DNA of 64,000 bases from an archaeon (lineage in GTDB: Archaea; Thermoproteota; Nitrososphaeria; Nitrososphaerales; JACAEJ01): contig JACGUG010000004.1 of assembly GCA_024256285.1 (NCBI GenBank), positions 2,359-66,358 on the forward strand. The letters run 5' to 3'. The first letter of the stretch is position 1; each line of letters begins with the position of its first letter. A model generated the notes under the pieces. That model was not told the origin of the DNA. It made no database searches and worked only from the letters and a program-made list of their open reading frames with translations. Of the stretch, positions 2,274-41,533 are shown piece by piece. The position numbers were made by a program, and so were the translations under genes.

Positions 2274-2508
2274 ACAGAAGGTTTGAACCTTCCCTTGATA
2301 ATAGACAGGTTAAGACGATGCATCTTCTACCTCCTATTTCGTCCCAAAATCACCATTAACCTATTTCGCCATGCTGCAAAGTTGACAGAACTTGGTTTGG
2401 GTAAAACAAATCGCGCTATAAATGCAGATAGAGAACATGGACTGTGCGCTGGCGTGTTGTGGTTGTATTGCTTGTTCGTTAAATAGGCGCACCATCCTCT
2501 ATAGATTC

Positions 2509-14107: not shown

Positions 14108-14858
14108 TCTTACACCACCCTTTAATTTGTAGACATTTTTCACACCATCCATATCCTTCCTTCAATATCTGGTCAAGAATTTTTATGGGCTCTCCTGAAC
14201 AAGCGATCTCCCCCTTGATTAAGACATGGCCTTTATCGACTTCTACATAACGTAAGATGTAGCCTACGTGGGTTATCAAAAGACCCGAACTTTCCTTAAG
14301 AAAGTTATTTATCACTTTGCCTATGATCGCAAGGTTTTCGATATCTACTCCCGAATCTGGCTCATCCAACATAGCAAATTTGGGTTTTTGGGCAAGAACC
14401 TGTAAAATTTCAGACTTTTTCATCTCCCCACCTGAGAAGCCACGATTCAGATCTCTGGAAAGGAACTCCTTTTCGAATTTCAAGGCATCACACAACTCTG
14501 CCTCTTTTTTCATTGCTTCAGCATCAGATTTGAGGAAGTTATGGACGATGTCTCCAAGCTTGACACCTCTTATAGCCGGCGGTCTTTGAAAGGCTATGCC
14601 CATCCCACGTTTCACACGCTCATCTATAGACATATTCGTTATATCTACACCATCGAACCTTATCCTGCCCGAAACTACTTTATAATCTGGGAAGCCCAAT
14701 ATAGTCATCAATATCGAAGTTTTTCCAGACCCGTTGGGTCCGAATAAGACATGACTCTCTCCCTCAGGTATCTCCAAGTCAACTCCGTCTAAGATTCTCT
14801 TCCCATCCACTTCGACGCTTAGATCTTCTATCTCAAGTAGGTTCAAAGAAGCCACCAT
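14094..14858 (-). CDS. sufC: Fe-S cluster assembly ATPase SufC
   Basis: Walker A is GPNGSGKTS, the ABC signature is FSGGEMKK, and Walker B is AMLDEPDSGVD. The gene sits directly upstream of sufB. Confidence 0.9.
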   Translation of the reverse strand: MVASLNLLEIEDLSVEVDGKRILDGVDLEIPEGESHVLFGPNGSGKTSILMTILGFPDYKVVSGRIRFDGVDITNMSIDERVKRGMGIAFQRPPAIRGVKLGDIVHNFLKSDAEAMKKEAELCDALKFEKEFLSRDLNRGFSGGEMKKSEILQVLAQKPKFAMLDEPDSGVDIENLAIIGKVINNFLKESSGLLITHVGYILRYVEVDKGHVLIKGEIACSGEPIKILDQILKEGYGWCEKCLQIKGWCKNVNR

Positions 14859-28000: not shown

Positions 28001-28411
28001 TCAGTCAGGTCTCGGTCTCCAGCCCAGAGCTAGGGCTCCTCCAACGATACCAAGGACAGCTCCTATATAGAAGCCTCCCATACCTAGGAAGCTGATTATC
28101 GAGAAGAGCAGAATTATAGTGCCCCAAGCTTTATGCTCTTCTGGACGTGTATTAAGCATCACTGCACCTATGATCACGATTATCCCAGACACCAAGCCTA
28201 TGAATGAAAGGCCGCCCATGAAACCGAAGGGGACTCCAAAGCTCCCCATCATCCAGTGGTAGCCTCCCATCATACCTCCGAATCCACCCATCATTCCACC
28301 AAAGCCTCCATACATGAACCACATGAATGCCATGCCTCCGCCTACAAGCATCAGTACCCCACCTATCAGGGATAAGATGAATGCAGCTTCAGGCTTCTCT
28401 TGGGAACTCAT
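28001..28411 (-). CDS. Met/Gly-rich integral membrane protein of unknown family
   Basis: About 4 predicted transmembrane segments. One loop reads [43 protein letters not shown]. It lies 16 nt upstream of copA and 19 nt downstream of the PepSY-like gene. Confidence 0.6.
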
Positions 28412-28430
28412 CTTTCTATCTCACCTCCTA

Positions 28431-29039
28431 TCAATTATGCTCCTCCATTCCTATAAATTCACCATGCCAGCTGTGATACCACACATCGCCGGTATAGCCG
28501 TTCACACTCAACATCCCAGACATCCTTCCGTCTATTGAAACATCCATGGTGTAGTAGCCATAGAACATCTTGGGCTCCTCTACACTTGCACCTGGAATGT
28601 TCGTGTCCAACCATCTTTGGCCGTATCCTGAAGCTTCCTTAGCGTCTATAGGCATAGAAGCCGTGGGGTTGATGACCCTTCCCATATGTCCATACTTCTG
28701 GTTCCACATCATATTCGGCCCTGGCTCAAAAACTATCCTTCCAGTATACCTGTCTACTAAGAGCTCGAAGGCGTTTATCCCTATGCTCTTCTCCTGAACT
28801 ATGATATAGAAGTGGTTGGAGAACTCCATGATCTCTTCGATTCTATAGCCCCCACCTAAACTAGATAGATACCGCTCGACTAGCTCTTCGGCTTGCTCTA
28901 TGCTATCCACAGCCTCGGCCGAATACAGAGCAGGTGAAAATGAGATAGAAATGACAAGTGCAACAGCTACCAACCCTAGGACAAGGACTAGCAACGCTAC
29001 GATCGGAAACCGACGTTGCTCATCTTGTTTTACTTTCAT
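28431..29039 (-). CDS. Membrane-anchored extracytoplasmic protein with PepSY-like repeats
   Basis: An N-terminal transmembrane anchor is followed by two modules ending …LLVDRYTGRIVFEP and …LSVNGYTGDVWYHSWHG, which resemble PepSY folds. The call is by eye. Confidence 0.5.
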   Translation of the reverse strand: MKVKQDEQRRFPIVALLVLVLGLVAVALVISISFSPALYSAEAVDSIEQAEELVERYLSSLGGGYRIEEIMEFSNHFYIIVQEKSIGINAFELLVDRYTGRIVFEPGPNMMWNQKYGHMGRVINPTASMPIDAKEASGYGQRWLDTNIPGASVEEPKMFYGYYTMDVSIDGRMSGMLSVNGYTGDVWYHSWHGEFIGMEEHN

Positions 29040-29122: not shown

Positions 29123-29749
29123 TTACGACTCTTCAGGAAACCTCTTCAGCCTCGCTGCATACCTCTCCTTGTAGGCTTCAAGGCAGGTATTACAGCAGAA
29201 GAACCGGGTCCCCTCCCCCACCCTAAGGGTATGTGGCCTCCCTGCGATCTCACCTCCACAGTAGTCGCAGGCCATCCTGATCTTCAGCTCAGGCTTCAAG
29301 AGGAGAGAAGGCCCTTCCTTCACCACCTTCGTAACTATCTGGGTTGTAGTCAGGGAGACTCCTGGCAGGGTGGTAACTTCCTCCTCGATGAAGCGCTGAA
29401 GATCCTCCAACCCTTCCACCATCAACTTCGCCACCAAGTTGCTCTCCCCCGCTGTAGTGAAGACATCGATCACCTCTTCCTTCAAGGCGAGAGACTCCTG
29501 CACTTCGCTTAGATCTTTGGCTTCAACTCGGAGATGCAGAATTGCCATGACTCCCTGTTCCACCTTGGTAAGGTCGAAGATCGGGGCGAAACCTTTGATG
29601 AAGCCCGCATCCTTCATCCGCCTGATCCTGGCCTCCACTGTAGGGGTCGATACTCCAACACGTTTAGCTACCTGCCTGTAGGAGAGCCTTCCATCCTCCA
29701 TCAGGGCCCTTAAGATGGCTATATCCAGACTGTCGAGGATTAGGGGCAT
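29123..29749 (-). CDS. Lrp/AsnC-family regulator with a C-terminal TRASH domain (CopR/CopT-like copper-responsive regulator)
   Basis: The N-terminal HTH reads LDSLDIAILRALMEDGRLSYRQVAKRVGVSTPTVEARIRRM. The C-terminus reads CDYCGGEI…FFCCNTCLEAYKERY. Confidence 0.8.
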   Translation of the reverse strand: MPLILDSLDIAILRALMEDGRLSYRQVAKRVGVSTPTVEARIRRMKDAGFIKGFAPIFDLTKVEQGVMAILHLRVEAKDLSEVQESLALKEEVIDVFTTAGESNLVAKLMVEGLEDLQRFIEEEVTTLPGVSLTTTQIVTKVVKEGPSLLLKPELKIRMACDYCGGEIAGRPHTLRVGEGTRFFCCNTCLEAYKERYAARLKRFPEES

Positions 29750-29781
29750 CTTACGGGAGTTAGATGGTTATCACTCAAGAT

Positions 29782-29800
29782 AAACTTTACGTATGTGAAA
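29782..29800 (+). promoter_or_regulatory. Candidate operator (site A) upstream of the copR-like gene
   Basis: AAACTTTACGTATGTGAAA is internally pseudo-palindromic (TTTAC…GTGAA). It lies 33-51 nt upstream of the copR-like ATG and is similar to site B. Confidence 0.35.
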
Positions 29801-30161
29801 CGTTAGCCACAGGAACTTGACATTCGTTAAGGTTTGCTTTGTTGCAGGCGGCATCCCCCACTTAAAACTTTGGTTCCACTAGCAACGGATTGGCTTTGAG
29901 AACATGGTGGACAAAGAGGTATGTAACGTTCAAACTATCAGCTACAGAATTGGTATTATACTCTGCCCCTCTTTGAACGAATTAAAAGATAGTCCCCTTA
30001 TGAGACTTTGCTAGCTCATGATACATCAAAGCATGTTTCTTTATAGATTCTTATGTCTCTGATGTTAAAAAGAATGTTTTATGTTCTTCCTTTAAAAATT
30101 TCAGTTGACAATTCACATCTGAATGCATATCATCTCACCAATAAATAAAAAAACAGATAAA

Positions 30162-30176
30162 TATAACGCTGTTATA
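30162..30176. promoter_or_regulatory. TATAAC-GCT-GTTATA palindrome (perfect), orphan copy in a 700-bp non-coding gap
   Basis: It is an exact 6+3+6 inverted repeat, and no ORF of 60 aa or more lies nearby. Confidence 0.5.
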
Positions 30177-30446
30177 GTAATGGGCTAGGGTGATAGTTCA
30201 CCTTGCATATTTGGCGATAGCACTACCACTATTTTAGTTTTGGTTTACAGAAAAGAGGTCTAGAGGACCATAACTTGCTATGTGGTCCATGAAAAATAAT
30301 CACGTCTCAGCGAGGATTTCTTGGCTGTTGAGCGAAGAATTCCTTGGATATCTATACAGCTAACAAATGGGGCTCATAATGTTACACCCGTACTCTTCGT
30401 CTACGATGGTCTGAGTATTTTTTCATGACCTACATTCAGCAAACTC

Positions 30447-31334
30447 TCACATTCGCCCTATTTCTAGTATGCGTTCTTGATGTGTCAACACGTTCATTCT
30501 TCTTCCTCTAACAAAGCTGATTATAGTTGTTCCAGTCAGTCGGGCAACTTCGATACCAGAGTAGATGGCCGCAGAGATGGAGGCGACTATCGGGATCTTC
30601 ATACGTGCTGCTTTTAAGACTATGTCTCCTGTGAGTCGTCCGCTTGAAGCCAGAAAACATTCATCGAAGCCAATCTTTTTAAGGGCTACTGCACCTATTA
30701 CTTTGTCTACCGCGTTATGGCGCCCCACATCCTCTGCCCAGACCAAAAGATCGCCTCTATGGGAGTAGATGGCTGCTATGTGGACTCCTCCTGTTTTACG
30801 GTATACTCCATCGAGGGTATTGAGGCGTTTGACCGACTCCGCTATGATTTTTGCTTCGACCTTAGATCTGGATGCAGATCGGGGGAGGCTTAGTCTATCC
30901 ATAAGTTTAGAGAGAGGCCAGTAGTCGGCGGAGCCACATGCAGACACGATCAATCGGGCGAAGGGTTGTGAGACAGCAATCCGTTTTTCGGCATCGACAC
31001 TCGGTGTTAGCCTGACTTGACAATTTCCATCTTTATCTATTTGTATTCTTCGAATCTCCTCTAAAGATTTCAGTACCCCTTCTGAGAGGAGGTGGCCGAC
31101 AGCCAACTCTTTTAACTGGCCTGGAGAGCAAAGAATCGAGACATAGCGGGTTTTGTTCAGAAATATGTGTAGGGGCGTCTCCTCTGCCACAAAATCAATT
31201 TTTGTCTCTATTTTTTTAGACGAAAGATTTATCTGTGTAACTTGAACCTTCTTCAAATCGATCCTCCTCAGTTGGAGATAAGTTAAGAGTTCTCCCTCGG
31301 AAAGGTCTCCTATATCTGCTTGTGAACATGTCAA
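30447..31334 (-). CDS. fdhD: FdhD-family sulfurtransferase (formate dehydrogenase / Mo-bisPGD sulfuration accessory protein)
   Basis: GGVHIAAIY…EDVGRHNAVDKVIGA…SGRLTGDIVLKAARMKIPIVASISA is typical of FdhD. The start codon is TTG. Confidence 0.8.
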   Translation of the reverse strand: MTCSQADIGDLSEGELLTYLQLRRIDLKKVQVTQINLSSKKIETKIDFVAEETPLHIFLNKTRYVSILCSPGQLKELAVGHLLSEGVLKSLEEIRRIQIDKDGNCQVRLTPSVDAEKRIAVSQPFARLIVSACGSADYWPLSKLMDRLSLPRSASRSKVEAKIIAESVKRLNTLDGVYRKTGGVHIAAIYSHRGDLLVWAEDVGRHNAVDKVIGAVALKKIGFDECFLASSGRLTGDIVLKAARMKIPIVASISAAIYSGIEVARLTGTTIISFVRGRRMNVLTHQERILEIGRM

Positions 31335-31347
31335 CCTATCACAGTTT

Positions 31348-31362
31348 CATAACATTATTATA
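31348..31362. promoter_or_regulatory. Degenerate palindrome cATAAC-ATT-aTTATA (10/12), 14 nt upstream of the fdhD start
   Basis: It has the same 6+3+6 geometry as the perfect copies, with one mismatch per half-site. Confidence 0.3.
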
Positions 31363-31465
31363 GTTTAATCCCATTGTGTGATTAGTCTTCTAAGATTTCT
31401 TTCGCTTTCTTTCATATATAATCATGATACATTCTATCTTTCCCTCCCATTTATCTACACTTTTC

Positions 31466-32674
31466 TCATTTAATCGACCTTGAAATCTCCTCAACCGAAG
31501 AAACCAGCTTCTCGATCTCCTCTTGGGTGTTATAGAGATATGTGGAGGCTCGGACGGATCCCCTATGTCGCTTTAGCAAGATTTTCATCAAGGGAAGAGC
31601 GCAATGGGCCCCTGATCTGACCATGATGTTGGCAGAGATATCCAAAGCTAAGGCCACGTTGTGAGGGTTCAGGTCTTTGATGTTGAAGGAAACTATGCTG
31701 ATTCTTTTTTCCAAGTTTTCAGGACCGTAAACTTCGACTTGGGGGATATCTTTTAATCTATAGTGCATCTCCTTAGTTAGTTCCCTTTCATGTGTTTCTA
31801 TGTTCTTCATCCCGATCTTCCTCAGATAATCAGTTGCTGCACCTAATCCGATGACTTCAGCAATCGCAGGAGTTCCAGCTTCAAACCTTTTAGGAATTTC
31901 ATTCATTTTGTAGTAGTCTAAGCCGACATCCTCGATCGTTCCTCCACCGATAGCCATGGGTTCGATCTTTTCCAGCAGATCTTCATGGGAGTAAAGTATG
32001 CCGACTCCAGTTGGACCGAGCATCTTGTGACCTGAAAAGGCCAGGTAGTCACATCCGATTTTTTGAACATCTACTTTCAAATGGGGAACTGATTGGGCTG
32101 CGTCGATAAGCAACTGAGCGCCATGTTCATGGGCAATCTGGGCAACTTCTCTAACTGGCGTTATCACGCCTAAAACGTTTGAAACATGGGTCATTGCCAC
32201 CAAATCTGTTTTATCATCTATCGCTTTTTTGAAATCAGAAATATCGAAAAGCCCCTCCTTGTTCGGTCTAACGATCTCCACATCTACCCCATATCTTCGC
32301 TTCAGACGTAACCAGACTATGAAGTTAGAGTGGTGCTCGATAAGTGTAGTGACTATTTTTCGTCCCTTCTTCCAGTTTAGCCCGTTTGCGACAAGATTTA
32401 TGCCTTCGGTGGTGTTCTTGGTCGTTATTATTTCGGATTCAGACCTAGCATTAATAAATTCAGCAACCTTAGAGCGAGCCTCTTCGTACTCCTCGCTAGC
32501 TCTCTGAGAGAGTCTGTGGATGCCACGTTCAACATTAGCACGGTACTCATGGTAAAACTCCAACATCTTTTGGAGAACAGGCTCTGGGGTTAGGCTGGTT
32601 GCGGCATTGTCTAAGTAAATGATCCCAGAATTTAGCAAAGGGAAATCTTGCCTAATCCTCTGCACATCTAGCAA
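31466..32674 (-). CDS. Class II (SufS/CsdA-type) cysteine desulfurase
   Basis: The PLP lysine context is SGHKMLGPTGVGILY, and the catalytic Cys loop is RSGAHCA. Length is 402 aa, with a TTG start. Confidence 0.88.
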   Translation of the reverse strand: MLDVQRIRQDFPLLNSGIIYLDNAATSLTPEPVLQKMLEFYHEYRANVERGIHRLSQRASEEYEEARSKVAEFINARSESEIITTKNTTEGINLVANGLNWKKGRKIVTTLIEHHSNFIVWLRLKRRYGVDVEIVRPNKEGLFDISDFKKAIDDKTDLVAMTHVSNVLGVITPVREVAQIAHEHGAQLLIDAAQSVPHLKVDVQKIGCDYLAFSGHKMLGPTGVGILYSHEDLLEKIEPMAIGGGTIEDVGLDYYKMNEIPKRFEAGTPAIAEVIGLGAATDYLRKIGMKNIETHERELTKEMHYRLKDIPQVEVYGPENLEKRISIVSFNIKDLNPHNVALALDISANIMVRSGAHCALPLMKILLKRHRGSVRASTYLYNTQEEIEKLVSSVEEISRSIK

Positions 32675-32699
32675 TTTGTATGCCTCCGTTGTATTCTTT

Positions 32700-32714
32700 T
32701 ATAACGCTGTTATT
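32700..32714. promoter_or_regulatory. TATAAC-GCT-GTTATt palindrome (11/12) between a TATA-like box and the cysteine desulfurase start
   Basis: The minus strand reads TTTATATAATAACAGCGTTATA, followed about 25 nt later by the TTG start with GGAGG in between. Confidence 0.5.
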
Positions 32715-32724
32715 ATATAAATAT

Positions 32725-33195
32725 CTACCAACACAATAACTCACTTCCTTTTGAATGAATCGCCCATATCAGGAGAAACGATACGATTCTTGCGACACTT
32801 GCTAATGGATGACCCTTAGCCTTGAGTTCAAGTGTGCAGAACCAACCGAAGGGAGTTCTGACAACCTTAAAGCCTTTTTCAATCAATCCTTTTTTCGTTA
32901 GCTCTAGTATCTCTACTGCGACCTCCGGTTTGCTCAGTTCTCCAAATAGATGAGTGAAGGGATGAAGAACCATAGTGCCTATCTTTAGTTGTTTGGCCAG
33001 CTTGGATATCTGTTCGGTGGCTTTCCTTGAGACCGATTCAGGATCGCGTTCATCTTGTTTCTCAACACTTGATAAAATGATCAATGCTTCCTTTACTTCC
33101 ATGGTCTTGGATTCGGGCTCTTCAACAATCCTAGACCTGCCCTTCTTGCTGATTGTAGAACGGAAATAGTCCACGTGAAGCATAAGCATCCTCAT
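32725..33195 (-). CDS. Free-standing archaeal ThrRS-editing-domain-like protein (tRNA-Thr_ED / DTD-like fold), paralog 1
   Basis: MRMLMLHVDYF…EALIILSSVEKQDERDPE…VLHPFTHLFGELSKPEVAVEIL…PFGWFCTLELKAKGHPLASVARIV resembles the N-terminal editing domain of archaeal ThrRS, as I recall it from Pyrococcus. No synthetase or anticodon-binding domain is attached. Confidence 0.7.
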   Translation of the reverse strand: MRMLMLHVDYFRSTISKKGRSRIVEEPESKTMEVKEALIILSSVEKQDERDPESVSRKATEQISKLAKQLKIGTMVLHPFTHLFGELSKPEVAVEILELTKKGLIEKGFKVVRTPFGWFCTLELKAKGHPLASVARIVSFLLIWAIHSKGSELLCW

Positions 33196-33234
33196 CTTCG
33201 CCCAACCCCATGTCTCCTCAAGGATAGGACTAGA

Positions 33235-33699
33235 TCAATGTTTCAAGTATTCTGCTCTGACTTTTCTCTGACTCCTCCTTAGAATTTCTAACAGCGTTGA
33301 TGAAGATATATTCAGGCTTTTGGCTAGTTCTGCAAGAGTTTTCCTCTTTGGGTAGTCGAAATAGCCTGCTTCAAAAGCCGCCTGAATTATCTGCTCCTGT
33401 CTATGTGTCAATACTTCTTTGACCTTCGCTCTAGTGACCTTGTTTATTTCAACCTCCAATCCCCTGTCAGCAAACTTTTTCAATAGACGCTTGAACTGAT
33501 CGAGCCCTCCCAGGGTGAGAGTATATTCTACATAACCGTTCTTCTTGGTTCTAGCAGAGGCGAGAAAGCATTTTGACTCTGTGAATATTCTACAAGCGAG
33601 ACACTTTGAAGTCTTTATCCAGCCAAAAGCCCTGTCTCTTCCAACTCTGATGATATCGAATTCACAGATAAGCTTGTTTTGATTCATACTTTCTATCAC
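33235..33699 (-). CDS. HTH_10 (Bat/COG3413-like) DNA-binding protein
   Basis: The C-terminus reads LTHRQEQIIQAAFEAGYFDYPKRKTLAELAKSLNISSSTLLEILRRSQRKV. The N-terminal domain may be shortened, because the upstream 200 bp has only broken frames. Confidence 0.65.
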   Translation of the reverse strand: MIESMNQNKLICEFDIIRVGRDRAFGWIKTSKCLACRIFTESKCFLASARTKKNGYVEYTLTLGGLDQFKRLLKKFADRGLEVEINKVTRAKVKEVLTHRQEQIIQAAFEAGYFDYPKRKTLAELAKSLNISSSTLLEILRRSQRKVRAEYLKH

Positions 33700-33902
33700 G
33701 TCATCAAGGATTTCATCTGACCCAGATATCTCTACAATTCTTCTGTATCACATTCGCCATCTCCCGGTTTGCAACTCTTAATCTTGACAATCACGATACT
33801 TTTTAGTGATCTCTTCTATCCACGTATGAACAGTCTTAAGAGACAGGACAACCTCGATCAAGGCTTACACCAAAGATGCTTTCCATTTCAGCCTGACTAG
33901 TG

Positions 33903-34982
33903 TTAGACCATGGGAAGACCTAACCTTTCAGCGATTTTCCTGTATGTCTTCAATGCAGACTCTTCATCGTAAATCCCTGAACCAGGGGCTACCTGTAATA
34001 TAGATACTCCTCCCTTCAGCACGCTCACCCCCACTTCTTTACTATAATCAAAGGTCAGACCCATTGTGCCCTCTGCCTTTAAGGGGATTCCTTCAGCCCA
34101 AAGCTTGTTTCTTATACCTTCTATATCAAGGGCTTTTACTCTCGTGTCAACGATGAAGACGCCCCTTCCATCCCTCCCGCAGACCCCACTCACAGCCTTT
34201 TCGAGCACTTGAGAAGTCTCGATTCTAGCTTCCCCACATGTAGGGCAATTGACATTCCTTGATAACTCTACCACATCGAAGCAGAAGTTCTCAAGGTCCA
34301 CGAACATGAGGCGGTTTTTGAGGTAGGGTTCTCTGTTCAGCAGGATTCTAACTGCCTCGGAGACTTCGATGCTGGAAACTACATCGAGAAGAGGTGTAAA
34401 GACTCCCACGATTGCGCATCTTTCCATATCTTCATCTTTTAGACCTGAGTAAAAGCACTCAAGGCAAGCAGTTTCCCCTGGGATGAAGGTTGATACGTTT
34501 CCAAAGGTCTGGATAGCAGCCCCAAAGATGTAAGGTATCTTCAGCTTTACGGCTGCCCTATTCAAGATGTACCTGGCTCCTATAGTATCCAATCCATCGA
34601 TAACCAGATCTACTCCCTCTATCAGCTCTTCAACGTTGTGAGAGGTGATGGATGTTGCTATGGGGTCTACCTCTACACTGGAATTCAATATACTCAGCCT
34701 CTTTACAGCAGCTTCAACTTTTGGCATACCTATACAGGATTCGTCATAGAGATACTGCCTGTGGAGGTCTGACTTCGATACAACGTCTCTATCGATAACA
34801 CGAAGGTAACCTATGCCCATGGCTACCATCTTCAAGGCTATGGGAGAGCCAAGCCCCCCCGCTCCCACGAGGCATACCCTCCCTGCTCTGAGAAGTGACT
34901 GCCCTTCATACCCTATGTAATTCAGAGCGATCTGCCTTGAATACCTCTCCAACTCTTCATCTGTAAGCTCAGTTCTTCCCAT
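33903..34982 (-). CDS. ThiF/MoeB/UbaA-type E1-like adenylyltransferase with a C-terminal extension of about 100 aa
   Basis: RYSRQI and GAGGLGS form the nucleotide-binding motif. There are two CxxC pairs (CLEC, CPTC). The C-terminal extension has no rhodanese signature that I can see. Confidence 0.85.
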   Translation of the reverse strand: MGRTELTDEELERYSRQIALNYIGYEGQSLLRAGRVCLVGAGGLGSPIALKMVAMGIGYLRVIDRDVVSKSDLHRQYLYDESCIGMPKVEAAVKRLSILNSSVEVDPIATSITSHNVEELIEGVDLVIDGLDTIGARYILNRAAVKLKIPYIFGAAIQTFGNVSTFIPGETACLECFYSGLKDEDMERCAIVGVFTPLLDVVSSIEVSEAVRILLNREPYLKNRLMFVDLENFCFDVVELSRNVNCPTCGEARIETSQVLEKAVSGVCGRDGRGVFIVDTRVKALDIEGIRNKLWAEGIPLKAEGTMGLTFDYSKEVGVSVLKGGVSILQVAPGSGIYDEESALKTYRKIAERLGLPMV

Positions 34983-35141
34983 TCAACTCACCCCAAGAGA
35001 ATATCAGATTGTCAAAACTCCTTTTATAAATGGATGAAACCTTAACCCATATCTACAGGTTAAAATTTTCACTAATGCTTCACATCCTTACATATATCTC
35101 ACCTAGTTAATATATTAATTTATTTTTGACAAAAAATTCCT

Positions 35142-35474
35142 TTATGAATAATCTACTTCCAGTATTCTTTGAGCCTCTACATCATCTTCAAATAAGTATC
35201 TTGAGGGCATTACATCGACCCTTATGCCAAGATTTTCTAAGGTATCTCTTGTTGGTTGTCCGGTGGCGACTATTATCGCACTTTCTTTGAAAAGTTTTGC
35301 TACTTTATTTTTCTTTATACATCTTTGCAATAATCTGAACATGTTCAGATGATTGCGGCAGTAGAACTGGTGAATATCATGGCATCTACCTATAGTTCGA
35401 CAAATCATCGACGAATTCTTCGATAGGAACTTCGAAGGGGTTATGGGCTCATACATTAGAATACATGTCTCCAT
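35142..35474 (-). CDS. Hypothetical protein (111 aa from the ATG at 35474); the C-terminus is faintly HemD-like
   Basis: The tracked 181-aa ORF overlaps the better-supported plus-strand gene at 35529, so I prefer the internal ATG. …IVATGQPTRDTLENLGIRVDVMPSRY resembles a uroporphyrinogen-III synthase half-domain. The region is AT-rich. Confidence 0.3.
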   Translation of the reverse strand: METCILMYEPITPSKFLSKNSSMICRTIGRCHDIHQFYCRNHLNMFRLLQRCIKKNKVAKLFKESAIIVATGQPTRDTLENLGIRVDVMPSRYLFEDDVEAQRILEVDYS

Positions 35475-35492
35475 ATCCTTACATAAAACATA

Positions 35493-35507
35493 TATAACAA
35501 TGTTATA
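35493..35507. promoter_or_regulatory. TATAAC-AAT-GTTATA palindrome (perfect) centred in a 54-nt divergent intergenic region
   Basis: It lies 18 nt from the ATG at 35474 (minus strand) and 21 nt from the ATG at 35529 (plus strand). Confidence 0.5.
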
Positions 35508-35528
35508 ATTAAAATCTGGGGGATTACT

Positions 35529-35951
35529 ATGAAGATGTTGTTCATCCATTGTAATTACTTCTCCTACCTTACAACCCAAAAAACGAAAGTGGCTGAGGAC
35601 CTCCCAAATGGATGTAAAAGTTGCGCTTTTAAGGACGCATTGGTCGTTTTCGTAACCGCAGAGAAAGTCGACGAGAAAAATCCGCAAAAAGTAGTGGGTA
35701 TGGGGATTAAGGCGATCGTAGACGTTTCAAACAAGGTGGGCGCAAAGAACATCGTCCTCTTCCCCTTTGTGCACCTTTCAGACGAAATCAGTAGTGCAGA
35801 GACGGGGTCAGAAATCATTAGAAACATCTATGAAAACCTCAGTTCTCTTAACTATACAGTTGACAAAGCCCCCTTTGGATGGGAGAAGGTGTTCTCCATG
35901 ACCTCAAAGGGCCATCCGTTGGCAGAGCTTTCTAGGACGATTCGGCCATAG
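35529..35951 (+). CDS. Free-standing archaeal ThrRS-editing-domain-like protein, paralog 2
   Basis: MKMLFIHCNYF…ALVVFVTAEKVDEKNPQKV…VLFPFVHLSDEISSAETGSEII…APFGWEKVFSMTSKGHPLAELSRTIRP is closer to the canonical editing domain than paralog 1. Length is 140 aa, single domain. Confidence 0.75.
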   Translation: MKMLFIHCNYFSYLTTQKTKVAEDLPNGCKSCAFKDALVVFVTAEKVDEKNPQKVVGMGIKAIVDVSNKVGAKNIVLFPFVHLSDEISSAETGSEIIRNIYENLSSLNYTVDKAPFGWEKVFSMTSKGHPLAELSRTIRP

Positions 35952-36001: not shown

Positions 36002-36280
36002 TCATCCTCCGCTAACAGCTGGAATGATCGAAACCTCATCTTCATCTTTTAATACTGTATCAAAATAGTTGAGGAAGCGTACATCTTTACCATCTACGTA
36101 GATGTTGATGAACCTTCTTATATTTCCCGTTGCGTCTAAGAGTTTCGCCTTAAACCTGTCTCCCCATCTTGCAGTCAGCCCATCGATTACCTCCCTTAGC
36201 GTCGACGCCTCCACTTCCACCTCTTTTTCTCCAGTCAAGTTCACTAAAGCTCCATAAAGAACGGTTTTTACTTTGCTCAT
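36002..36280 (-). CDS. MoaD/ThiS-family ubiquitin-like sulfur carrier ending in Gly-Gly
   Basis: …INIYVDGKDVRFL…LKDEDEVSIIPAVSGG is followed directly by the stop. GAGGTG lies upstream of the ATG at 36280. An alternative GTG at 36295 would overlap the ThrC-like stop (GTGA). Confidence 0.75.
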   Translation of the reverse strand: MSKVKTVLYGALVNLTGEKEVEVEASTLREVIDGLTARWGDRFKAKLLDATGNIRRFINIYVDGKDVRFLNYFDTVLKDEDEVSIIPAVSGG

Positions 36281-36291
36281 TTTCACACCTC

Positions 36292-37536
36292 TCACTTTAC
36301 GATCTCTGCAAGTGACTCTAAAGTAGGCTCGATCTCAAAGGGTTTAGCTATACTGTTTAAAAGAGTCTCGGCTGCCTTGAACCCGTTACCAGTGACACAA
36401 CAGACAATCTCCTCATCTGGCGATATCTCTCCAAGCTTGACAAGTTTCTTTAAGACCGCTACTGTCACACCACCGGCAGGCTCGGCGAAGATCCCCTCTG
36501 TTTTCGCTAAAAGTTGGATTGCATCTAATATCTCAAAGTCCGTAACTGATTCGGCCACGCCGCCAGATTCACGTATAGCCTTTATGGCATAAAAACCGTC
36601 TCCCGGGTCTCCTATGGCCAAGCTCTTTGCTACAGTAGAGGGATGCTCGATGGGCTTCACGTCAAGGGCGTTGGCTTTAAAGGCCTTTACTATCGGAGCA
36701 CAACCGGAAGGCTGGGCACCCGTGATTCTAGTCTTTAAATCATCGACTAAATCGAGTCTTTGGAACTCTTTGAGGCCCCTCCAAATGGCACAGAGCAAGG
36801 CTCCACTGGCCATCGGCACTATCACACGGTCTGGAGCTTTCCATCCAAGTTGCTCACATATCTCAAAGGCCAAAGTTTTTGAACCCTCCACATAGTACGG
36901 CCGAATGTTTATGTTCGCAAAGGCCCAGTCGTATACCTCTGAAGCCTGAGCTGCGAGCCGGTTGGCATCATCGTAGGTTCCTTTAACGGCCACTATTCTA
37001 GCTCCATAGATCGTTGCCTGTAGGATTTTGTTGAGTTCGATGTCTGATGGAATGAAAACGTAGCAAGGCAATCCGGCTTTGGCTGCATGAGCCGCTGTAG
37101 CGGCAGCTAGATTGCCTGTTGAAGCACACCCGACAGCCTTGGCGCCAAATTCTAGAGCCTTAGATACGGCAACAGTAGCCGGTCTGTCTTTAAATGAGTA
37201 GGTTGGATTGACCGTATCGTCCTTGATATACAGTTTTCTTAATCCAAATATCTCCGCTAGCCTGTCACATCTGTGTAAAATTGTGTAGCCAGCACCTAGA
37301 TCCACGATTTTTGTTCTATTATTGACGGGTAGGAGTTCGAAGTATCGCCAGACCGTTTTAGGTCTATCTTGAAACGATTTCCTGTCAAGCTCTATGAGGT
37401 CATAGTTGTAGGTTACCTCAAGAGGCCCAAAACAGTCCTCACAAGTGTAAATCTTGGTTGGGAGGTGCTCTCTTCCACACTCTCTACACTTGAGCGATCT
37501 GATATATTCCAGTCTCTCGATACTTTCTATAACCAT
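36292..37536 (-). CDS. Threonine synthase-like PLP enzyme with an N-terminal Zn-ribbon
   Basis: CRECG…CEDCFGPLEVTY is followed by the PLP-lysine region PTYSFKDRPA and a TrpB-like fold II pattern. I prefer the ATG at 37536 over 37554. Confidence 0.8.
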   Translation of the reverse strand: MVIESIERLEYIRSLKCRECGREHLPTKIYTCEDCFGPLEVTYNYDLIELDRKSFQDRPKTVWRYFELLPVNNRTKIVDLGAGYTILHRCDRLAEIFGLRKLYIKDDTVNPTYSFKDRPATVAVSKALEFGAKAVGCASTGNLAAATAAHAAKAGLPCYVFIPSDIELNKILQATIYGARIVAVKGTYDDANRLAAQASEVYDWAFANINIRPYYVEGSKTLAFEICEQLGWKAPDRVIVPMASGALLCAIWRGLKEFQRLDLVDDLKTRITGAQPSGCAPIVKAFKANALDVKPIEHPSTVAKSLAIGDPGDGFYAIKAIRESGGVAESVTDFEILDAIQLLAKTEGIFAEPAGGVTVAVLKKLVKLGEISPDEEIVCCVTGNGFKAAETLLNSIAKPFEIEPTLESLAEIVK

Positions 37537-37542
37537 GTTATA
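37528..37542. promoter_or_regulatory. TATAAC-CAT-GTTATA palindrome (perfect) centred on the likely ThrC-like start codon
   Basis: The CAT spacer is the reverse complement of the ATG at 37534-37536. Confidence 0.45.
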
Positions 37543-37636
37543 ACTGATAATCACCTAATACATTAATATTTTTTTGATAATTCTATTCCAATTAGAATAA
37601 AATTGGGGGGACCCTTGCATCGTTAAATATATAAAC

Positions 37637-37651
37637 TATAACGGTGTTATA
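37637..37651. promoter_or_regulatory. TATAAC-GGT-GTTATA palindrome (perfect) just downstream of a TATA-like box and 39 nt upstream of tRNA-Cys
   Basis: AAATATATAAAC is followed by the palindrome, and the tRNA 5' end is at 37690. Confidence 0.5.
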
Positions 37652-37689: not shown

Positions 37690-37782
37690 GCCGGGGTGGC
37701 CGAGCGGTTAGGCGGCAGGCTGCAGACGGTTCTATGTGTAGAGACCTGCTCTACGCAGGTTCGAATCCTGCCCCCGGCTCCA
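37690..37782 (+). tRNA. tRNA-Cys (GCA) with an 18-nt intron at the canonical 37/38 position and an encoded CCA
   Basis: Manual fold gives: acceptor GCCGGGG/CCCCGGC; D arm GCC…GGC; anticodon stem GCAGG/CCTGC enclosing CTGCAG + 18-nt intron + A; 5-nt variable loop; T arm GCAGG-TTCGAAT-CCTGC; discriminator U followed by CCA. Confidence 0.85.
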
Positions 37783-37848: not shown

Positions 37849-38031
37849 ATGGCTGAAAAGGCTGTAGAGGAAACCTTTGCGGTGTTGTTTGCCCTGATCG
37901 ACTTAAGACAGATTTTTAGAGAGACCAAGCCCACTTATCGGCTTAGCACTGAACAGAAGGAGAAGATCAAGGAGATTCTTGGAGAAGTAAGACAGAGTTT
38001 GGATATTATTGAAAAGGAGCTGGTAACATGA
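37849..38031 (+). CDS. 60-aa predicted helical protein translationally coupled to SepCysS (ATGA overlap)
   Basis: MAEKAVEETFAVLFALIDLRQIFRETKPTYRLSTEQKEKIKEILGEVRQSLDIIEKELVT has amphipathic, heptad-like character. Its stop overlaps the SepCysS ATG. Confidence 0.45.
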   Translation: MAEKAVEETFAVLFALIDLRQIFRETKPTYRLSTEQKEKIKEILGEVRQSLDIIEKELVT

Positions 38032-39209
38032 GGGATATCGTTGGTAACATCGAGATCAGGGCAAGAGAGGAACTCTTCATAAACATTCATCCGATTCAAC
38101 CTGGGGGTAGGCTCACCCCAGAAGCCATGAAGGCTCTCATCGCTTACGGAGACGGCTATTCAACTTGTGATTGGTGCAGGAAGCCCTTCAGGCTCGACAA
38201 GATCCAAAGACCTCCGATAGACGAGTTCCATATTGAACTAGCAAAATTCTTGGGAATGGATCAGGCGAGGGTCGTCCCTGGTGCAAGGAGGGGCTTCCAA
38301 GCCGTCGTCTCTTCGATGATCGAAAAGGGAGACTCTGTGATCGTTTCCTCATTAGCACATTACACAGAATTCTTGGCTGTAGAAGCAGCTAGAGGTGTGG
38401 TTAAGGAAGTCCCCCTAAACGAGAATAAAGTAATCACTGGAGAAAACACAGCCAAAAAGATAGAGGAAGTGAAGAAAGAGACGGGAGCCCTCCCAAAACT
38501 GATCATGATGGACCATTTCGATTACATGCTGGGGAATGAGCATGACGTTCGTGGGGTTGCGCGAGTTGCGAAAGATTACGGTATCCCCTTTCTGTATAAC
38601 GGCGCCTACACAATAGGGGTGATGCCTGTAAATGGGAAAGAGATAGGGGCAGACTTTTTGGTGGGCTCAGGACACAAAAGTTTCGCCTCCCCCGCACCTT
38701 CTGGGATCTTGGCAACTACTGAAGAGTGGTCAGACAGAGTGTTTAGAACGACTCAGATGGTCGGCGATGTGACAAAAAGGAAATTTGGGATTAAAGAAGT
38801 CGAGATGATGGGTTGCACTTTGATGGGCGCCAATCTAATTGCAATGATGGCAAGTTTTCCTACTATAAAAGAGCGGGTTAAACATTGGGACGAAGAAGTC
38901 GAGAAGATCAACTATTTCGTCAAGGAATTTTTAAAGATCCAAGGAAATAGGGTTCTGAGTGAGGTGCCGAGGAAACACACTCTAACGAAGGTAGATACGA
39001 CAGGAAGCTTCGATAAGATTGCGCAAACCCACAAAAGGAGGGGTTTTTTCTTCAGTGATGAGTTAAAAAAGAGGAAGATCGTCGGCGAATTCGCAGGAGC
39101 CACAAAGGCTTGGAAGATGAACACTTATGGACTAACGTGGGATCAGATAAGATACTTGGCCCAAGCATTTCAAGACATTGCAAGAAGATATAACATAGAT
39201 GTAACATAA
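38028..39209 (+). CDS. pscS: O-phosphoseryl-tRNA(Cys):Cys-tRNA synthase (SepCysS)
   Basis: HPIQPGGRLTPEA…GDGYSTCDWC…RLDKIQRPPIDEFH…LAKFLGMD, the PLP site GSGHKSFASPAPSGIL, and GCTLMGANLIAMMASFP match my recollection of archaeal SepCysS sequences. Confidence 0.85.
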   Translation: MRDIVGNIEIRAREELFINIHPIQPGGRLTPEAMKALIAYGDGYSTCDWCRKPFRLDKIQRPPIDEFHIELAKFLGMDQARVVPGARRGFQAVVSSMIEKGDSVIVSSLAHYTEFLAVEAARGVVKEVPLNENKVITGENTAKKIEEVKKETGALPKLIMMDHFDYMLGNEHDVRGVARVAKDYGIPFLYNGAYTIGVMPVNGKEIGADFLVGSGHKSFASPAPSGILATTEEWSDRVFRTTQMVGDVTKRKFGIKEVEMMGCTLMGANLIAMMASFPTIKERVKHWDEEVEKINYFVKEFLKIQGNRVLSEVPRKHTLTKVDTTGSFDKIAQTHKRRGFFFSDELKKRKIVGEFAGATKAWKMNTYGLTWDQIRYLAQAFQDIARRYNIDVT

Positions 39210-39343: not shown

Positions 39344-41533
39344 ATGAACCATCGAAACCATAATAAACATAGTCACCAAGACCATGCTCACCACATAGAA
39401 GAGTTCAAAAGAAGGCTTTGGCTATCCCTTATACTTACAATCCCCATTCTACTTCTTTCCGAAATGATCCAGATATGGTTTGGTTTTAGTCTAAAAATAC
39501 CATTTCAGAAAGAGGTTTTATTCCTTCTATCTCTAATTGTTTACCTTTACGGTGGGTGGCCCTTCTTAAAGGGAATAGTCCAAGAAGTAAAGACCCACCA
39601 GCCAGGGATGATGACCCTTATAGGCACAGCCATATCCGTGGCCTTCTTCTATTCTGCAGGAACAGTCTTCCTCATAGTTGGGAAGGATTTCTTCTGGGAA
39701 CTTGTAACTCTTATCGATGTAATGCTTCTTGGGCACTGGATAGAGGCTAAAAGTGTTCTTGGGGCTTCGAGGGCATTGGAAGAGCTCGTCAAGATAATGC
39801 CTACGACAGCCCACCTTGTCAAAAACGGTGAAATTGCAGATGTCCCAGTTTCACAGTTAAAGACTGACCAAGTTGTTCTTGTTCGTCCAGGAGAGAAGAT
39901 ACCTTCCGATGGCCTTGTAATAGAGGGGAAATCCTTCGTCAATGAAGCCCTTTTGACAGGAGAATCGAAACCCGTTCATAAAGAGACAGAAGATAAAGTG
40001 ATAGGTGGTGCAATAAACGGAGAAGGCGTTTTGAAGGTAAGAATAGAAAGGACAGGTGAAGAAACTTATCTGGCACAGGTAATAAAACTAGTAAGACAAG
40101 CTCAAGAAAGTAGGTCTAGAACTCAAGATCTGGCAAACAGAGCATCGGCCCTTCTTTTTTATGTTGCCCTTGGAGTGGGAATAGTAACCTACATAACATG
40201 GTTTCTTCTTTCTACACCCTTTTTTGCCCTTGAAAGATCCGTTACGGTTCTCGTTATAGCCTGCCCCCATGCCCTCGGTCTGGCAATACCTCTTGTTGTC
40301 GCCCTCTCCACTTCTATAACTGCAAAAAGTGGAATCCTCATCAGGGATAGAAGAGCCTTTGAGATGGTCAAGGATGTAAACGCTGTTGTCTTTGACAAGA
40401 CTGGGACGTTGACAGAAGGCAAGTTCGGGGTTAGTGATGTGGTATCCTTGACGCCTGAAGATGAACTTTTAAAACTCACTTCAAGTGTAGAACTGAACTC
40501 TGAGCATATAATAGCAAAGGCTATTGTGGAATATACAAAGGAAAGAAGTATAGCGATTCCTCAGGTGCAGGAATTCAAGGCGATACCCGGTAAGGGTGCC
40601 TATGGAAAAGTTGAAGACAAAGAAGTCTATGTAGGAAGTCCGAACCTTCTGAAAGAAATGAAGATAGAGATAGAAGATCAGAGGATAAAGGAACTTCAGG
40701 AACAGGGCAAAACGGTCGTTTTTACCATAGTTGATGGAAAACTTGTTGGTGCCTTCGCTCTTTCTGATAAGATAAGAAAGGAATCCTACGAAGCGGTCAG
40801 GAAATTAAAGGAGATAGGGTTAAAGGTCTACATGCTCACAGGGGATGCTGAGGAAGTCGCCCGATGGGTTGCGAAAGAACTCGGTATAGACGAATACTTT
40901 GCCCAAGTCTTGCCCGACGAGAAAGCAGAAAAAGTCAAGCTCTTGAAGGAAAAAGGCTATAAAGTTGCTATGGTCGGCGATGGCGTGAACGATGCTCCCG
41001 CCCTTGTTACGGCAGATGTTGGTATCGCCATAGGTGCTGGAACCGATGTAGCCATAGAAAGTGCAGATATAATCCTCGTGAAAAATGACCCTACGGACGT
41101 TTCAAAGGTTACTGACCTTTCACAGAAAACGTACTCGAAGATGGTTCAGAATCTGTGGTGGGCATCGGGTTATAATATCTTCGCTATACCCCTAGCAGCT
41201 GGTGTTTTGTATAATTTCGGAATAGTCGTAAGTCCTGCGGTGGGGGCCTTGTTTATGTCCTTGAGCACCGCTATAGTTGCCTTTAATAGCCAGACCTTGA
41301 GAAAGTACGAACCAAAGGTTGCAGAGTTTGTAGAGAAGAAGCATATGACCACAGACCCGGTTTGTGGGATGAAGGTAGAACCCGAAAAGGCTTACAGCAA
41401 GATGGAGTATGAGGGATATGTTATCTACTTCTGTTCAGAAGACTGTGAAGAGGAATTTAAGAAGAATCCTGAAAGATACCTATCAAAGATGAAAAAAGAA
41501 GAACCTAAAAAACATGAACATCGCCATCACTAA
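39344..41533 (+). CDS. copB: P1B-type copper ATPase of the CPH (CopB-like) type, with a His-rich N-terminus and a C-terminal TRASH/YHS domain plus His-rich tail
   Basis: The N-terminus reads MNHRNHNKHSHQDHAHH. Core motifs are the transmembrane ACPHALGLAIP, DKTGTLT and GDGVNDAP. The C-terminus has DPVCGMKV…YVIYFCSEDCEEEFKKNPERY…KHEHRHH. Confidence 0.9.
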   Translation: MNHRNHNKHSHQDHAHHIEEFKRRLWLSLILTIPILLLSEMIQIWFGFSLKIPFQKEVLFLLSLIVYLYGGWPFLKGIVQEVKTHQPGMMTLIGTAISVAFFYSAGTVFLIVGKDFFWELVTLIDVMLLGHWIEAKSVLGASRALEELVKIMPTTAHLVKNGEIADVPVSQLKTDQVVLVRPGEKIPSDGLVIEGKSFVNEALLTGESKPVHKETEDKVIGGAINGEGVLKVRIERTGEETYLAQVIKLVRQAQESRSRTQDLANRASALLFYVALGVGIVTYITWFLLSTPFFALERSVTVLVIACPHALGLAIPLVVALSTSITAKSGILIRDRRAFEMVKDVNAVVFDKTGTLTEGKFGVSDVVSLTPEDELLKLTSSVELNSEHIIAKAIVEYTKERSIAIPQVQEFKAIPGKGAYGKVEDKEVYVGSPNLLKEMKIEIEDQRIKELQEQGKTVVFTIVDGKLVGAFALSDKIRKESYEAVRKLKEIGLKVYMLTGDAEEVARWVAKELGIDEYFAQVLPDEKAEKVKLLKEKGYKVAMVGDGVNDAPALVTADVGIAIGAGTDVAIESADIILVKNDPTDVSKVTDLSQKTYSKMVQNLWWASGYNIFAIPLAAGVLYNFGIVVSPAVGALFMSLSTAIVAFNSQTLRKYEPKVAEFVEKKHMTTDPVCGMKVEPEKAYSKMEYEGYVIYFCSEDCEEEFKKNPERYLSKMKKEEPKKHEHRHH

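Follow-up and report, generated by a model that had tools for sequence, protein, structure and literature searches.

Stand-alone threonyl-tRNA synthetase-type editing domain proteins in an archaeal cysteine and sulfur gene cluster, with a proposed role for one of them at tRNA-Cys

A 64-kb stretch of DNA from an archaeon of the Nitrososphaeria (contig JACGUG010000004.1, positions 2,359 to 66,358; the whole stretch is called the window below) contains two genes for small proteins homologous to the N-terminal editing domain (ED) that archaea have in their threonyl-tRNA synthetase (ThrRS). They are named ED1 (32725-33195, minus strand, 156 aa) and ED2 (35529-35951, plus strand, 140 aa). ED2 belongs to a distinct clade of stand-alone editing domains with added cysteines and a striking linkage to tRNA-Cys genes, and it probably deacylates aminoacyl-tRNA(Cys) in trans, as part of the cysteine pathway leading from SepRS to SepCysS (Sep-tRNA:Cys-tRNA synthase). 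This clade, the ArsR-DsrE context of the ED1 clade and a defined operator in the gene cluster are the additions made here.

The arrangement and the main trans-editing hypothesis, both of which had been raised in an initial annotation of the window, are real but were already published (Mukai 2017, 2022). Stand-alone 'tRNA-Thr-ED' proteins without the anticodon-binding domain of ThrRS-ed were defined in 2017 (Mukai 2017 mBio, PMC5424206, Text S1 and Fig. S4), and their genes were reported beside clade VII SepCysS, tRNA-Cys and sulfur genes, with a split 'SepCysSn' peptide upstream of SepCysS. Two SepCysS-linked clades were distinguished, one from MSBL1/Hadesarchaea and one from methanogens with a C-terminal Cys-rich peptide, and the role proposed for them was editing of Ser-tRNA(Cys) in trans (PMC5424206). 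According to a later review, the isolated domain discriminates tRNAs via U73, which is common to tRNA-Cys, and some bacterial SepRS carry tRNA-Thr-ED as an N-terminal fusion (Mukai 2022, PMC8762117).

The ED2 family and its association with tRNA-Cys

Both open reading frames (ORFs), which the initial annotation had read by eye as free-standing, single-domain ThrRS-editing homologues, matched the profile PF08915 (tRNA-Thr_ED) over its length and far above its gathering score of 30.2 bits. ED1 reached 128 bits (E 3.4e-37, profile positions 1-135 of 137) and ED2 143.8 bits (E 4.7e-42, profile positions 1-137 of 137), and the pairwise identity of the two is 31%. To the NCBIfam models of full-length ThrRS and of ThrRS-ed they aligned over the first ~140 positions only and well under the cut-offs; for NF011500, the scores were 77.8 bits (ED1) and 97.9 bits (ED2) against a cut-off of 362, with model positions 1-134 covered. 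Since the matches end there, both proteins are single-domain, and Pfam and NCBIfam profile searches found neither a catalytic nor an anticodon-binding domain in them. Homologues are built alike: all 64 ED2 homologue clusters and all 120 ED1 homologue clusters listed (the best 120 of 315) are stand-alone, about 135-160 aa or shorter fragments, and ED1 and ED2 are therefore not gene fragments.

The proteins are thus arranged differently from crenarchaeal ThrRS-ed (NF011500; Korencic et al. 2004), as had been supposed. ThrRS-ed has a homologous editing domain, acts in trans and has active-site motifs in common with ED2, but it retains its own degenerate catalytic domain and an anticodon-binding domain (~390 aa), and its partner is a ThrRS-cat that lacks editing, while the genes found with ED2 are tRNA-Cys and SepCysS.

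ED1 and ED2 align end to end with the solved ThrRS editing domains of P. abyssi, M. jannaschii and A. pernix (Pab-NTD, MjNTD and ApNTD, NTD standing for N-terminal domain; 1Y2Q, 2HL1, 4RRF, 4RR6). The AlphaFold2 (AF2) model of ED2 had a mean predicted local distance difference test score (pLDDT) of 93.3, and in Foldseek it superposed on Pab-NTD (3PD3/2HL1) with a template modelling (TM) score of 0.97 and a root-mean-square deviation of 1.0 A, and on 4RRF with a TM score of 0.95. For ED1, only the core (residues 1-128) was modelled with confidence; it has the same order of secondary-structure elements as the ED2 model, and its last strand was poorly modelled. Three motifs of the adenosine-76/acyl pocket (Pab-NTD numbering), P80-F81-x-H83, F117-G118-[WY]119 and K-G-H130-P131-L, are present in both proteins and invariant in both families.

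ED2 also keeps the equivalents of H83, K121 and E134 of Pab-NTD. The family alignment shows no variation at H83, K121, PFGW and KGHPL and at least 95% conservation at E134; the lysine equivalent to Lys121, which is K120 in ED2, is invariant in 58 family members. ED1 does not have this lysine. The motifs quoted in the initial annotation, GWEKVF in ED2 and GWFCTL in ED1, were found as given. Apart from being unfused, ED2 differs from the ThrRS domains by a glutamate at Tyr120, which is constant in the family, by a valine that usually replaces Ala82, and by three cysteines, C8, C29 and C32 (the latter two forming a CxxC), which are at least 95% conserved in the family and are not found in canonical domains. 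Mutagenesis has shown that K121M is severely compromised in three NTDs, the lysine positioning the catalytic water, that H83A is dead in Pab-NTD, that Y120 and E134 are dispensable for deacylation, and that catalysis relies on the 2'-OH of A76; the canonical pocket is tuned to serine, whose beta-OH is fixed by a main-chain NH (PMC4491819). Because K121 and H83 are retained and the changed Y120 is dispensable, ED2 looks catalytically competent.

In a neighbour-joining tree without support values, in which its placement is provisional, ED2 formed its own clade ('HC...CxxC / GWEK') within the Lys121-retaining group, next to canonical ThrRS, ThrRS-ed and the MSBL1 and methanogen types. ED1 fell into a separate clade with different usual neighbourhoods, and the two are, by sequence, no recent paralogues, contrary to the initial annotation, which had treated them as a diverged pair. 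Compared with the proteins described by Mukai, ED2 is likewise a single domain of ~140 aa encoded beside SepCysS, a SepCysSn-like gene, tRNA-Cys and sulfur genes, and its tRNA-Cys carries the U73 on which the published trans-editing hypothesis is based. However, in that tree it falls into neither the MSBL1/Hadesarchaea nor the methanogen type, its cysteines are internal (C8, C29xxC32) and not in a C-terminal Cys-rich tail, and it has GWEK in place of GWYK. Furthermore, Mukai's clades were 'euryarchaeal and DPANN', while ED2 comes from TACK-related lineages and Hadarchaeota, and its link to tRNA-Cys persists where SepCysS is not nearby.

The family is small, archaeal and missing from the 2017 dataset. 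Neither of its motifs PFGWEK and GCKSC was found among the sequences of Mukai 2017, and an exhaustive profile search of 1.84 billion representatives found the ED2 family as one 50%-identity representative (233 bits), the next match being a full-length ThrRS (155 bits). Among 185,579 GTDB species representatives there are 16 loci, in Methylarchaceae, Bathyarchaeia, Hadarchaeota, Methanomethylicota and another metagenome-assembled genome (MAG) of the Thermoproteota. Two further sequences may be transitional forms between the canonical and the ED2 type: P0189 (138 aa), a stand-alone ED with the His-Cys pair and GWEK and without the CxxC, and the second ED copy of locus L050 (2451-2864, minus strand), which has the His-Cys pair with a canonical GWYK.

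The gene neighbourhoods of these loci carry the functional argument. In the fetched loci, ORFs were called and searched with the window proteins, neighbours were clustered de novo and tRNAs were scanned with introns allowed; the counts that follow refer to 5 kb around ED2 in 16 non-redundant loci, window included. A tRNA-Cys was present in 12/16 loci and SepCysS (above 500 bits) in 8/16, followed by SufS/IscS-like proteins (7/16), ThiF (6/16), ThrC-like and ThiS proteins (5/16 each), IscU (4/16) and ThiI (2/16). With the window excluded, tRNA-Cys occurred at 11 of 15 ED2 loci vs 2 of 33 ED1 loci (Fisher p = 3.8e-6) and SepCysS at 7 of 15 vs 0 of 33 (p = 8.7e-5). Relatives of ED2 are thus linked to tRNA-Cys and SepCysS in other genomes also, across four archaeal lineages.

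In Methanomethylicota and a related MAG, SepCysS is missing from the vicinity, but the strand of ED2 carries a tRNA-Cys gene 59-98 bp upstream of it, and in two Hadarchaeota it lies 44 bp downstream of ED2, in the order ED2-tRNA-Cys-c253-IscU-IscS (L016, L018), again with no SepCysS in view. Every tRNA-Cys beside an ED2-type gene, in the window and in the fetched loci, has the anticodon GCA, G37 and U73. In the window, this tRNA-Cys(GCA) gene (37690-37782, plus strand) has an 18-nt intron at 37/38 and an encoded CCA; it was detected with the ARAGORN intron option and matched the Rfam tRNA model with 51 bits. By default, ARAGORN calls a 93-nt tRNA-Ser(AGA) at 37690-37782, which was overturned by the intron-aware run and the Rfam match. 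Like the cysteine trio of ED2, this tRNA-Cys gene goes beyond the initial annotation. The same intron-bearing tRNA-Cys gene is also present in the sister genome HK01M (Ca. Methylarchaceae; L008 3513-3605).

Some further observations were made at these loci. In L011, a second stand-alone ED of the MSBL1 type (~2410-2866, plus strand; GWYK, no cysteine trio) directly follows a tRNA-Cys (2331-2404), and an ED2-type copy lies beside SepCysS, so that two ED clades can coexist, each linked to tRNA-Cys. Two unannotated protein families, neither with a Pfam or NCBIfam match, each occur near ED2 in 6/16 loci. One of them, c139 (~105-139 aa), has an N-terminal 'PCE', an XRE-like helix-turn-helix (HTH), a C-terminal CxxC and often further cysteines (L001 10106-10492; L003 8440-8748; L020 5440-5733; L022 10441-10812; L017 12627-12947); it is also found near ED1 in L025, L040 and L057, has no copy in the window, and might regulate the ED2 unit in response to thiols or metals. 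The other one, c253, is a Cys-rich protein of ~253 aa ('...CDVCGEPTINCASGKCGRC...') that, in Hadarchaeota and some Bathyarchaeia, separates ED2/tRNA-Cys from IscU-IscS (beside ED2 in L011 4881-5642 and in L015, L016, L017, L018 and L019).

Candidate substrates of ED2

A role of ED2 with tRNA-Cys rather than with Ser-tRNA(Thr) is strongly supported by the presence of tRNA-Cys and SepCysS at so many of its loci, and the suggestion of the initial annotation that such proteins go beyond Ser-tRNA(Thr) proofreading holds well for ED2. Genomically, it is closely linked with SepCysS and with a tRNA-Cys that has U73 and G37, and the operator described below is common to sulfur and cysteine genes. ED2 might act as a homodimer that, without an anticodon-binding domain, recognises the acceptor end via U73 and then hydrolyses a wrong or unwanted aminoacyl ester. 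Its most likely substrate would be Ser-tRNA(Cys), which could arise by dephosphorylation of Sep-tRNA(Cys), as already proposed in the literature, or alternatively when, with sulfur in short supply, the dehydroalanyl intermediate on SepCysS is hydrated. The glutamate at position 120 might help to reject the anionic Sep intermediate by repelling its phosphate, and C8 and C29xxC32 could bind a metal or sense the sulfur or redox state. A second SepCysS-linked clade independently gained a Cys-rich tail, and because of this the cysteine additions in SepCysS-linked EDs suggest metal binding or sulfur/redox sensing.

Two known systems are instructive here. In the bacterial SepRS-ED fusion (PMC8762117) the domain is physically tied to tRNA-Cys charging, which supports an action on aminoacyl-tRNA(Cys), but it is fused and has a fully canonical Ser motif, whereas ED2 is free-standing and linked by neighbourhood and operator. 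D-aminoacyl-tRNA deacylase (DTD) has the same superfold and is also a free-standing, trans-acting, dimeric deacylase without an anticodon-binding domain; it is distant to ED2 (TM ~0.7, 8-12% identity), and its specificity motif is a cross-subunit Gly-cisPro.

Several points weigh against a deacylase of Ser-tRNA(Cys), or make it less firm. At three ED2 loci (L009, L017, L019), neither tRNA-Cys nor SepCysS was found within 10 kb, also when a missed tRNA-Cys was searched for; SufS or ThiF-ThiS-ThrC-like genes are present there, and therefore the common denominator could be sulfur trafficking. The aminoacyl moiety that ED2 removes is not deducible from sequence, the mutual proximity of C8, C29 and C32 is uncertain from strand order alone, and the tree that separates the clades carries no support values. 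No aminoacyl-tRNA synthetase gene lies within the 64-kb window, and the architecture of the host ThrRS is not visible there. In the literature, no functional test of any stand-alone tRNA-Thr-ED was found. The activity proposed below for the ED1 clade is a guess from context and charge reversal.

Ser-tRNA(Cys) is ranked first among the possible substrates of ED2 and Cys-tRNA(Cys) second, with a role away from tRNA and Ser-tRNA(Thr) editing lower. It is possible, though unlikely, that ED2 hydrolyses Cys-tRNA(Cys) and frees cysteine for desulfurases and for the iron-sulfur (Fe-S), thiamine and thiocarboxylate machinery, so that tRNA-Cys would serve as a biosynthetic scaffold. ED2 neighbours are enriched for users of free cysteine or sulfur (the SufS/IscS, IscU, ThiI, ThiF and ThrC-like/ThiS genes counted above), the ED2-tRNA-Cys pair of the Hadarchaeota L016 and L018 lies in an IscS-IscU cluster, and the operator of ED2 is common with SufS and SepCysS. 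Moreover, a flow from SepCysS via cysteine to SufS would need a deacylation step, because cysteine synthesis cannot draw its net sulfur from a cysteine desulfurase. However, the canonical pocket is Ser-tuned and would have to accept cysteine, hydrolysis of a correct product would compete with translation, and the SepCysS-linked EDs of the MSBL1 type keep a fully canonical Ser pocket. Carried to its end, and with the same doubt, this idea would cast ED2 as a regulated hydrolase of Cys-tRNA(Cys), an enzyme so far missing from tRNA-dependent cysteine biosynthesis, that supplies cysteine for Fe-S, thiamine, thiocarboxylate and methionine chemistry; its neighbouring tRNA-Cys would be a scaffold and not an adaptor, and its cysteine trio would gate the activity by sulfur or redox state.

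An action of the ED proteins off tRNA, in the ThiS/MetO-ThiF-ThrC-like thiocarboxylate module or in a SepCysS sulfur relay, is quite improbable. Possible forms are the hydrolysis of carrier acyl-adenylates or thioesters, in substitution for Mec/JAMM, or the carriage of persulfide on the conserved cysteines. ThrC-like-ThiS(-ThiF) genes lie beside both ED clades (5/16 ED2 loci; the ED1 operons of L025, L062 and L063), Pfam and NCBIfam scans saw no Mec/JAMM gene in the window cluster, two independent SepCysS-linked ED clades have added cysteines (the ED2 trio and the C-terminal tail of the methanogen type), and the three ED2 loci without tRNA-Cys have sulfur genes. On the other hand, the strict conservation in ED2 of H83/K121 and of the motifs of the adenosine pocket argues for an aminoacyl-adenosine ester as substrate and for hydrolysis dependent on the ribose 2'-OH, and the EDs of the MSBL1 type have no extra cysteines. 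The ThiS protein of the window already ends in Gly-Gly and needs no maturation, while Mec is, in a passage of the GapMind preprint (10.1101/2024.10.14.618325), an enzyme needed for maturation of MetO and not for product release. On these grounds, the candidate of an ED as Mec/JAMM substitute was ranked low.

Very improbable, finally, is that ED1 or ED2 is a housekeeping Ser-tRNA(Thr) editor for an editing-less ThrRS, in the manner of ThrRS-ed or of the stand-alone ED of Ignicoccus, with an incidental sulfur context. ED2 retains all residues for Ser-tRNA(Thr) editing, split ThrRS is known from the TACK group, of which the host is a member, and the host ThrRS is not seen in the window. Yet ED2 is sporadic, being scattered over four lineages in only those 16 species representatives, and therefore is no housekeeping factor; the company it keeps is tRNA-Cys, SepCysS and sulfur genes rather than tRNA-Thr or ThrRS. 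In ED1, K121 is missing, without which canonical editing is crippled, and its clade includes a bacterial sequence from Peptococcaceae; in bacteria, ThrRS normally brings an unrelated editing domain of its own. The literature on ThrRS-R and ThrRS-C types, when searched, returned nothing for the host lineage.

Operator palindrome and other genes of the cluster

The genes of the cluster are arranged in the order Lrp/TRASH(-), FdhD(-), SufS(-), ED1(-), HTH_10(-), ThiF(-), ED2(+), ThiS-like(-), ThrC-like(-), tRNA-Cys(+), 60-aa ORF(+) and SepCysS(+). Across this region, the palindrome TATAAC-N3-GTTATA occurs in five copies, vs 0.12 expected in 64 kb, all of them between 30.1 and 37.7 kb. The copy at 35493-35507 (TATAACAATGTTATA) is centred 29 nt upstream of the ATG of ED2 and overlaps the expected TATA-box position. 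A copy with one mismatch (32700-32714) lies past the stop of ED1 and ~30 nt upstream of the SufS start, another one (37528-37542) at the 5' end of the ThrC-like gene, and a fourth one (37637-37651) has its 3' end ~40 nt upstream of the unit of tRNA-Cys, SepCysSn-like ORF and SepCysS. In HK01M (L008), SufS and ED2 are direct divergent neighbours and both operators are found at the same offsets, and the palindrome is therefore the operator of a local regulon comprising SufS, ED2, ThrC-like/ThiS and tRNA-Cys-SepCysSn-SepCysS.

The initial annotation had placed each ED next to a palindrome. The palindrome is real and ED2 has its own operator, but the copy on the ED1 side is assigned, by comparison with HK01M, to the SufS promoter, because there it is kept at SufS although no ED1 is present. 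Of the two ED genes, only ED2 therefore has an operator in its own promoter, and in the window the ED1-HTH_10-ThiF block sits between the SufS and ED2 operators. The fifth, perfect copy (30162-30176) is an orphan in a 697-bp stretch (29750-30446) without an ORF of at least 40 aa; Rfam gave no match in 29700-35600, including this stretch. The orphan could mark an unannotated small gene or RNA of the same regulon. The HTH_10 transcription regulator with N-terminal cysteines (33235-33699, minus strand; PF04967 74.5 bits) is a candidate for the protein that binds the palindrome.

SepCysS (38028-39209, plus strand) scored 625.8 bits with NF006810 (cut-off 301) and 420.5 bits with TIGR02539 (cut-off 365). 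Directly upstream lies the 60-aa ORF (37849-38031, plus strand), the stop of which overlaps the SepCysS start; from ED2, the distances are 1.7 kb to tRNA-Cys, 1.9 kb to this ORF and 2.1 kb to SepCysS. Copies of the ORF, always directly upstream of SepCysS, are found in L001 (9604-9786), L008 (3676-3858), L011 (9554-9736), L012 (2781-2963) and L023 (8132-8341), with a mean column identity of 73% over 6 loci and 68-90% identity across distant lineages. Its position and size are the grounds for calling it SepCysSn-like. No sequence match to SepCysE came up when solved structures were searched by profile, and there was no NCBIfam match, so the label is one of position only.

On the minus strand, an FdhD-type sulfurtransferase (30447-31334; TIGR00129 191 bits, cut-off 141) is followed by a SufS-family cysteine desulfurase (31466-32674; TIGR01979 496.5 bits, cut-off 475). 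The ThiF/MoeB-type E1 adenylyltransferase (33903-34982, minus strand; PF00899 227 bits, residues 14-247), with a MoeZ-like role, has a C-terminal extension of ~110 aa (residues ~250-359) that starts with CPTC, had no Pfam or NCBIfam match and contains no recognisable MoeZ-like rhodanese domain. Beyond ED2 are a MetO-like sulfur carrier of the ThiS/MoaD/SAMP type (36002-36295, minus strand; PF02597 54.9 bits, TIGR01687 52.9 bits; ending ...AVSGG) and, overlapping it, a ThrC-like pyridoxal phosphate enzyme with an N-terminal CxxC...CxxC ribbon (36292-37554, minus strand; PALP 262 bits, NF006050 'threonine synthase' 317.7 bits). The GTG start of the ThrC-like gene is upstream of, or overlaps, the operator at 37528-37542 and the next Met codon is inside it, so that start and promoter geometry are uncertain.

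By sequence and gene order, the ThrC-like protein is a candidate MetM-type thiocarboxylate-dependent homocysteine synthase. In the MetM/MetO/MoeZ(/Mec) system, O-phosphohomoserine is converted to homocysteine via a thiocarboxylate (Hasebe et al. 2024, as summarised in a passage of the GapMind preprint 10.1101/2024.10.14.618325). The window resembles it in the overlap of a ThrC homologue with a Gly-Gly-ended ThiS-like gene and in a ThiF-type E1 and a cysteine desulfurase nearby; it differs in being archaeal, in joining these genes with SepCysS, tRNA-Cys and EDs and in having no Mec/JAMM in view. The ThrC-like/ThiS/ThiF triad recurs in L008, L009, L011, L014, L025, L062 and L063.

Other features at and around the cluster are listed for completeness. 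A 181-aa ORF (35142-35687, minus strand) runs antisense across the start of ED2 and is probably no gene; its C-terminal 45 residues, in the ThiF-ED2 spacer, have a weak likeness to the end of the uroporphyrinogen-III synthase HemD (E 0.005, below threshold), and it may hold a HemD-like remnant left by a rearrangement that placed ED1-HTH_10-ThiF between SufS and ED2. Two P-type Cu-ATPases (25894-27984, minus strand; 39344-41533, plus strand) bracket the cluster. At its edge are an Lrp regulator with a TRASH metal-binding domain (29123-29749, minus strand) and two small membrane or secreted proteins (within 28001-29039, minus strand), one of which (28431-29039, cluster c242) has a homologue directly after ED1 in L059, L070 and L071. 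Cu-ATPases are also found near ED genes in L001, L008, L011, L056 and L095, which hints that copper and sulfur are connected here. A gene of the SufB/D type for Fe-S assembly (12884-14152, minus strand) lies ~17 kb from the cluster, and SUF machinery is therefore present in the same genome region.

The ED1 clade and biological meaning

ED1 clusters with a clade of signature 'GRS / GWFN / PLSR' ('GRS...HPFAHLF...GWFNTLE...PLSRVAR') for which the protein search gave 315 clusters and metagenomes gave 276 confirmed matches, and which takes in one bacterium, the Peptococcaceae member of Mukai's dataset. Like ED2, these proteins are not fused to a ThrRS; they retain H83, PFGW and KGHPL, and differ from the archaeal ThrRS domains by Y79H, Y120F, K121N and E134R. 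Elsewhere, the usual context is a same-strand ArsR(HTH_5)-ED1-DsrE operon (ArsR 15/34 loci, DsrE 15/34), often followed by an SQR-like flavoprotein (5/34 loci) or a SHOCT membrane protein, and in three loci (L025, L062, L063) ED1 is in same-strand operons with ThrC-like-ThiS(-ThiF). No paper connecting the tRNA-Thr-ED domain to DsrE or sulfide operons was found in a literature search. The clade probably hydrolyses a different acyl-adenosine ester, perhaps an anionic, sulfur-bearing one, in a sulfide or persulfide response, since the adenosine pocket is kept, the glutamate that holds the alpha-amino group is switched to arginine and the operon context points to sulfide or persulfide. A deacylase of anionic, sulfur-modified aminoacyl esters is the best guess for ED1, at low confidence.

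The copy in the window is aberrant. It is 67-81% identical to its nearest members and breaks 5 of the 43 columns that are at least 95% conserved (T16S, E62Q, N120C, S132A, R133S), compared with a family mean of 0.6, and thereby ties for the most deviant among the best 120 of 315 clusters. The Lys-to-Cys exchange, which the initial annotation had taken as divergence of the paralogs, did not hold up in this form, as the family has a near-invariant Asn at the Lys121 position and the Cys is a private substitution of the window copy. The hydrophobic 17-aa tail noted there is present but not conserved: no homologue has it, the family ends ~2-4 residues after '...ARIVS', and residues 129-156 had a pLDDT below 50. 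The window copy is flanked by the HTH_10 regulator and SufS, and no homologues of ArsR, DsrE or SQR were found within the 64 kb. With its place in the ArsR-DsrE operon lost and with mutations in the pocket, it may be in decay or on the way to another function; its role is still read from sequence and context as linked to sulfur.

Stand-alone ThrRS-type editing domains near SepCysS have been on record since 2017, and the ED2 clade makes the question of their function testable, as it combines a full catalytic apparatus with three conserved cysteines and stays beside a U73/G37 tRNA-Cys also in loci where SepCysS is not at hand. If ED2 does edit Ser-tRNA(Cys), this would be an undemonstrated quality-control step of an indirect aminoacylation pathway; if it releases cysteine, it would explain how free cysteine is supplied in organisms that make cysteine only on tRNA. 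The shared palindromic operator delimits a small cysteine/methionine/sulfur regulon in an archaeal lineage about which little is known. In the ED1 clade, the same fold was recruited into ArsR-DsrE-SQR operons, which points to a non-translational or stress-linked use of the deacylase fold in sulfur biology.

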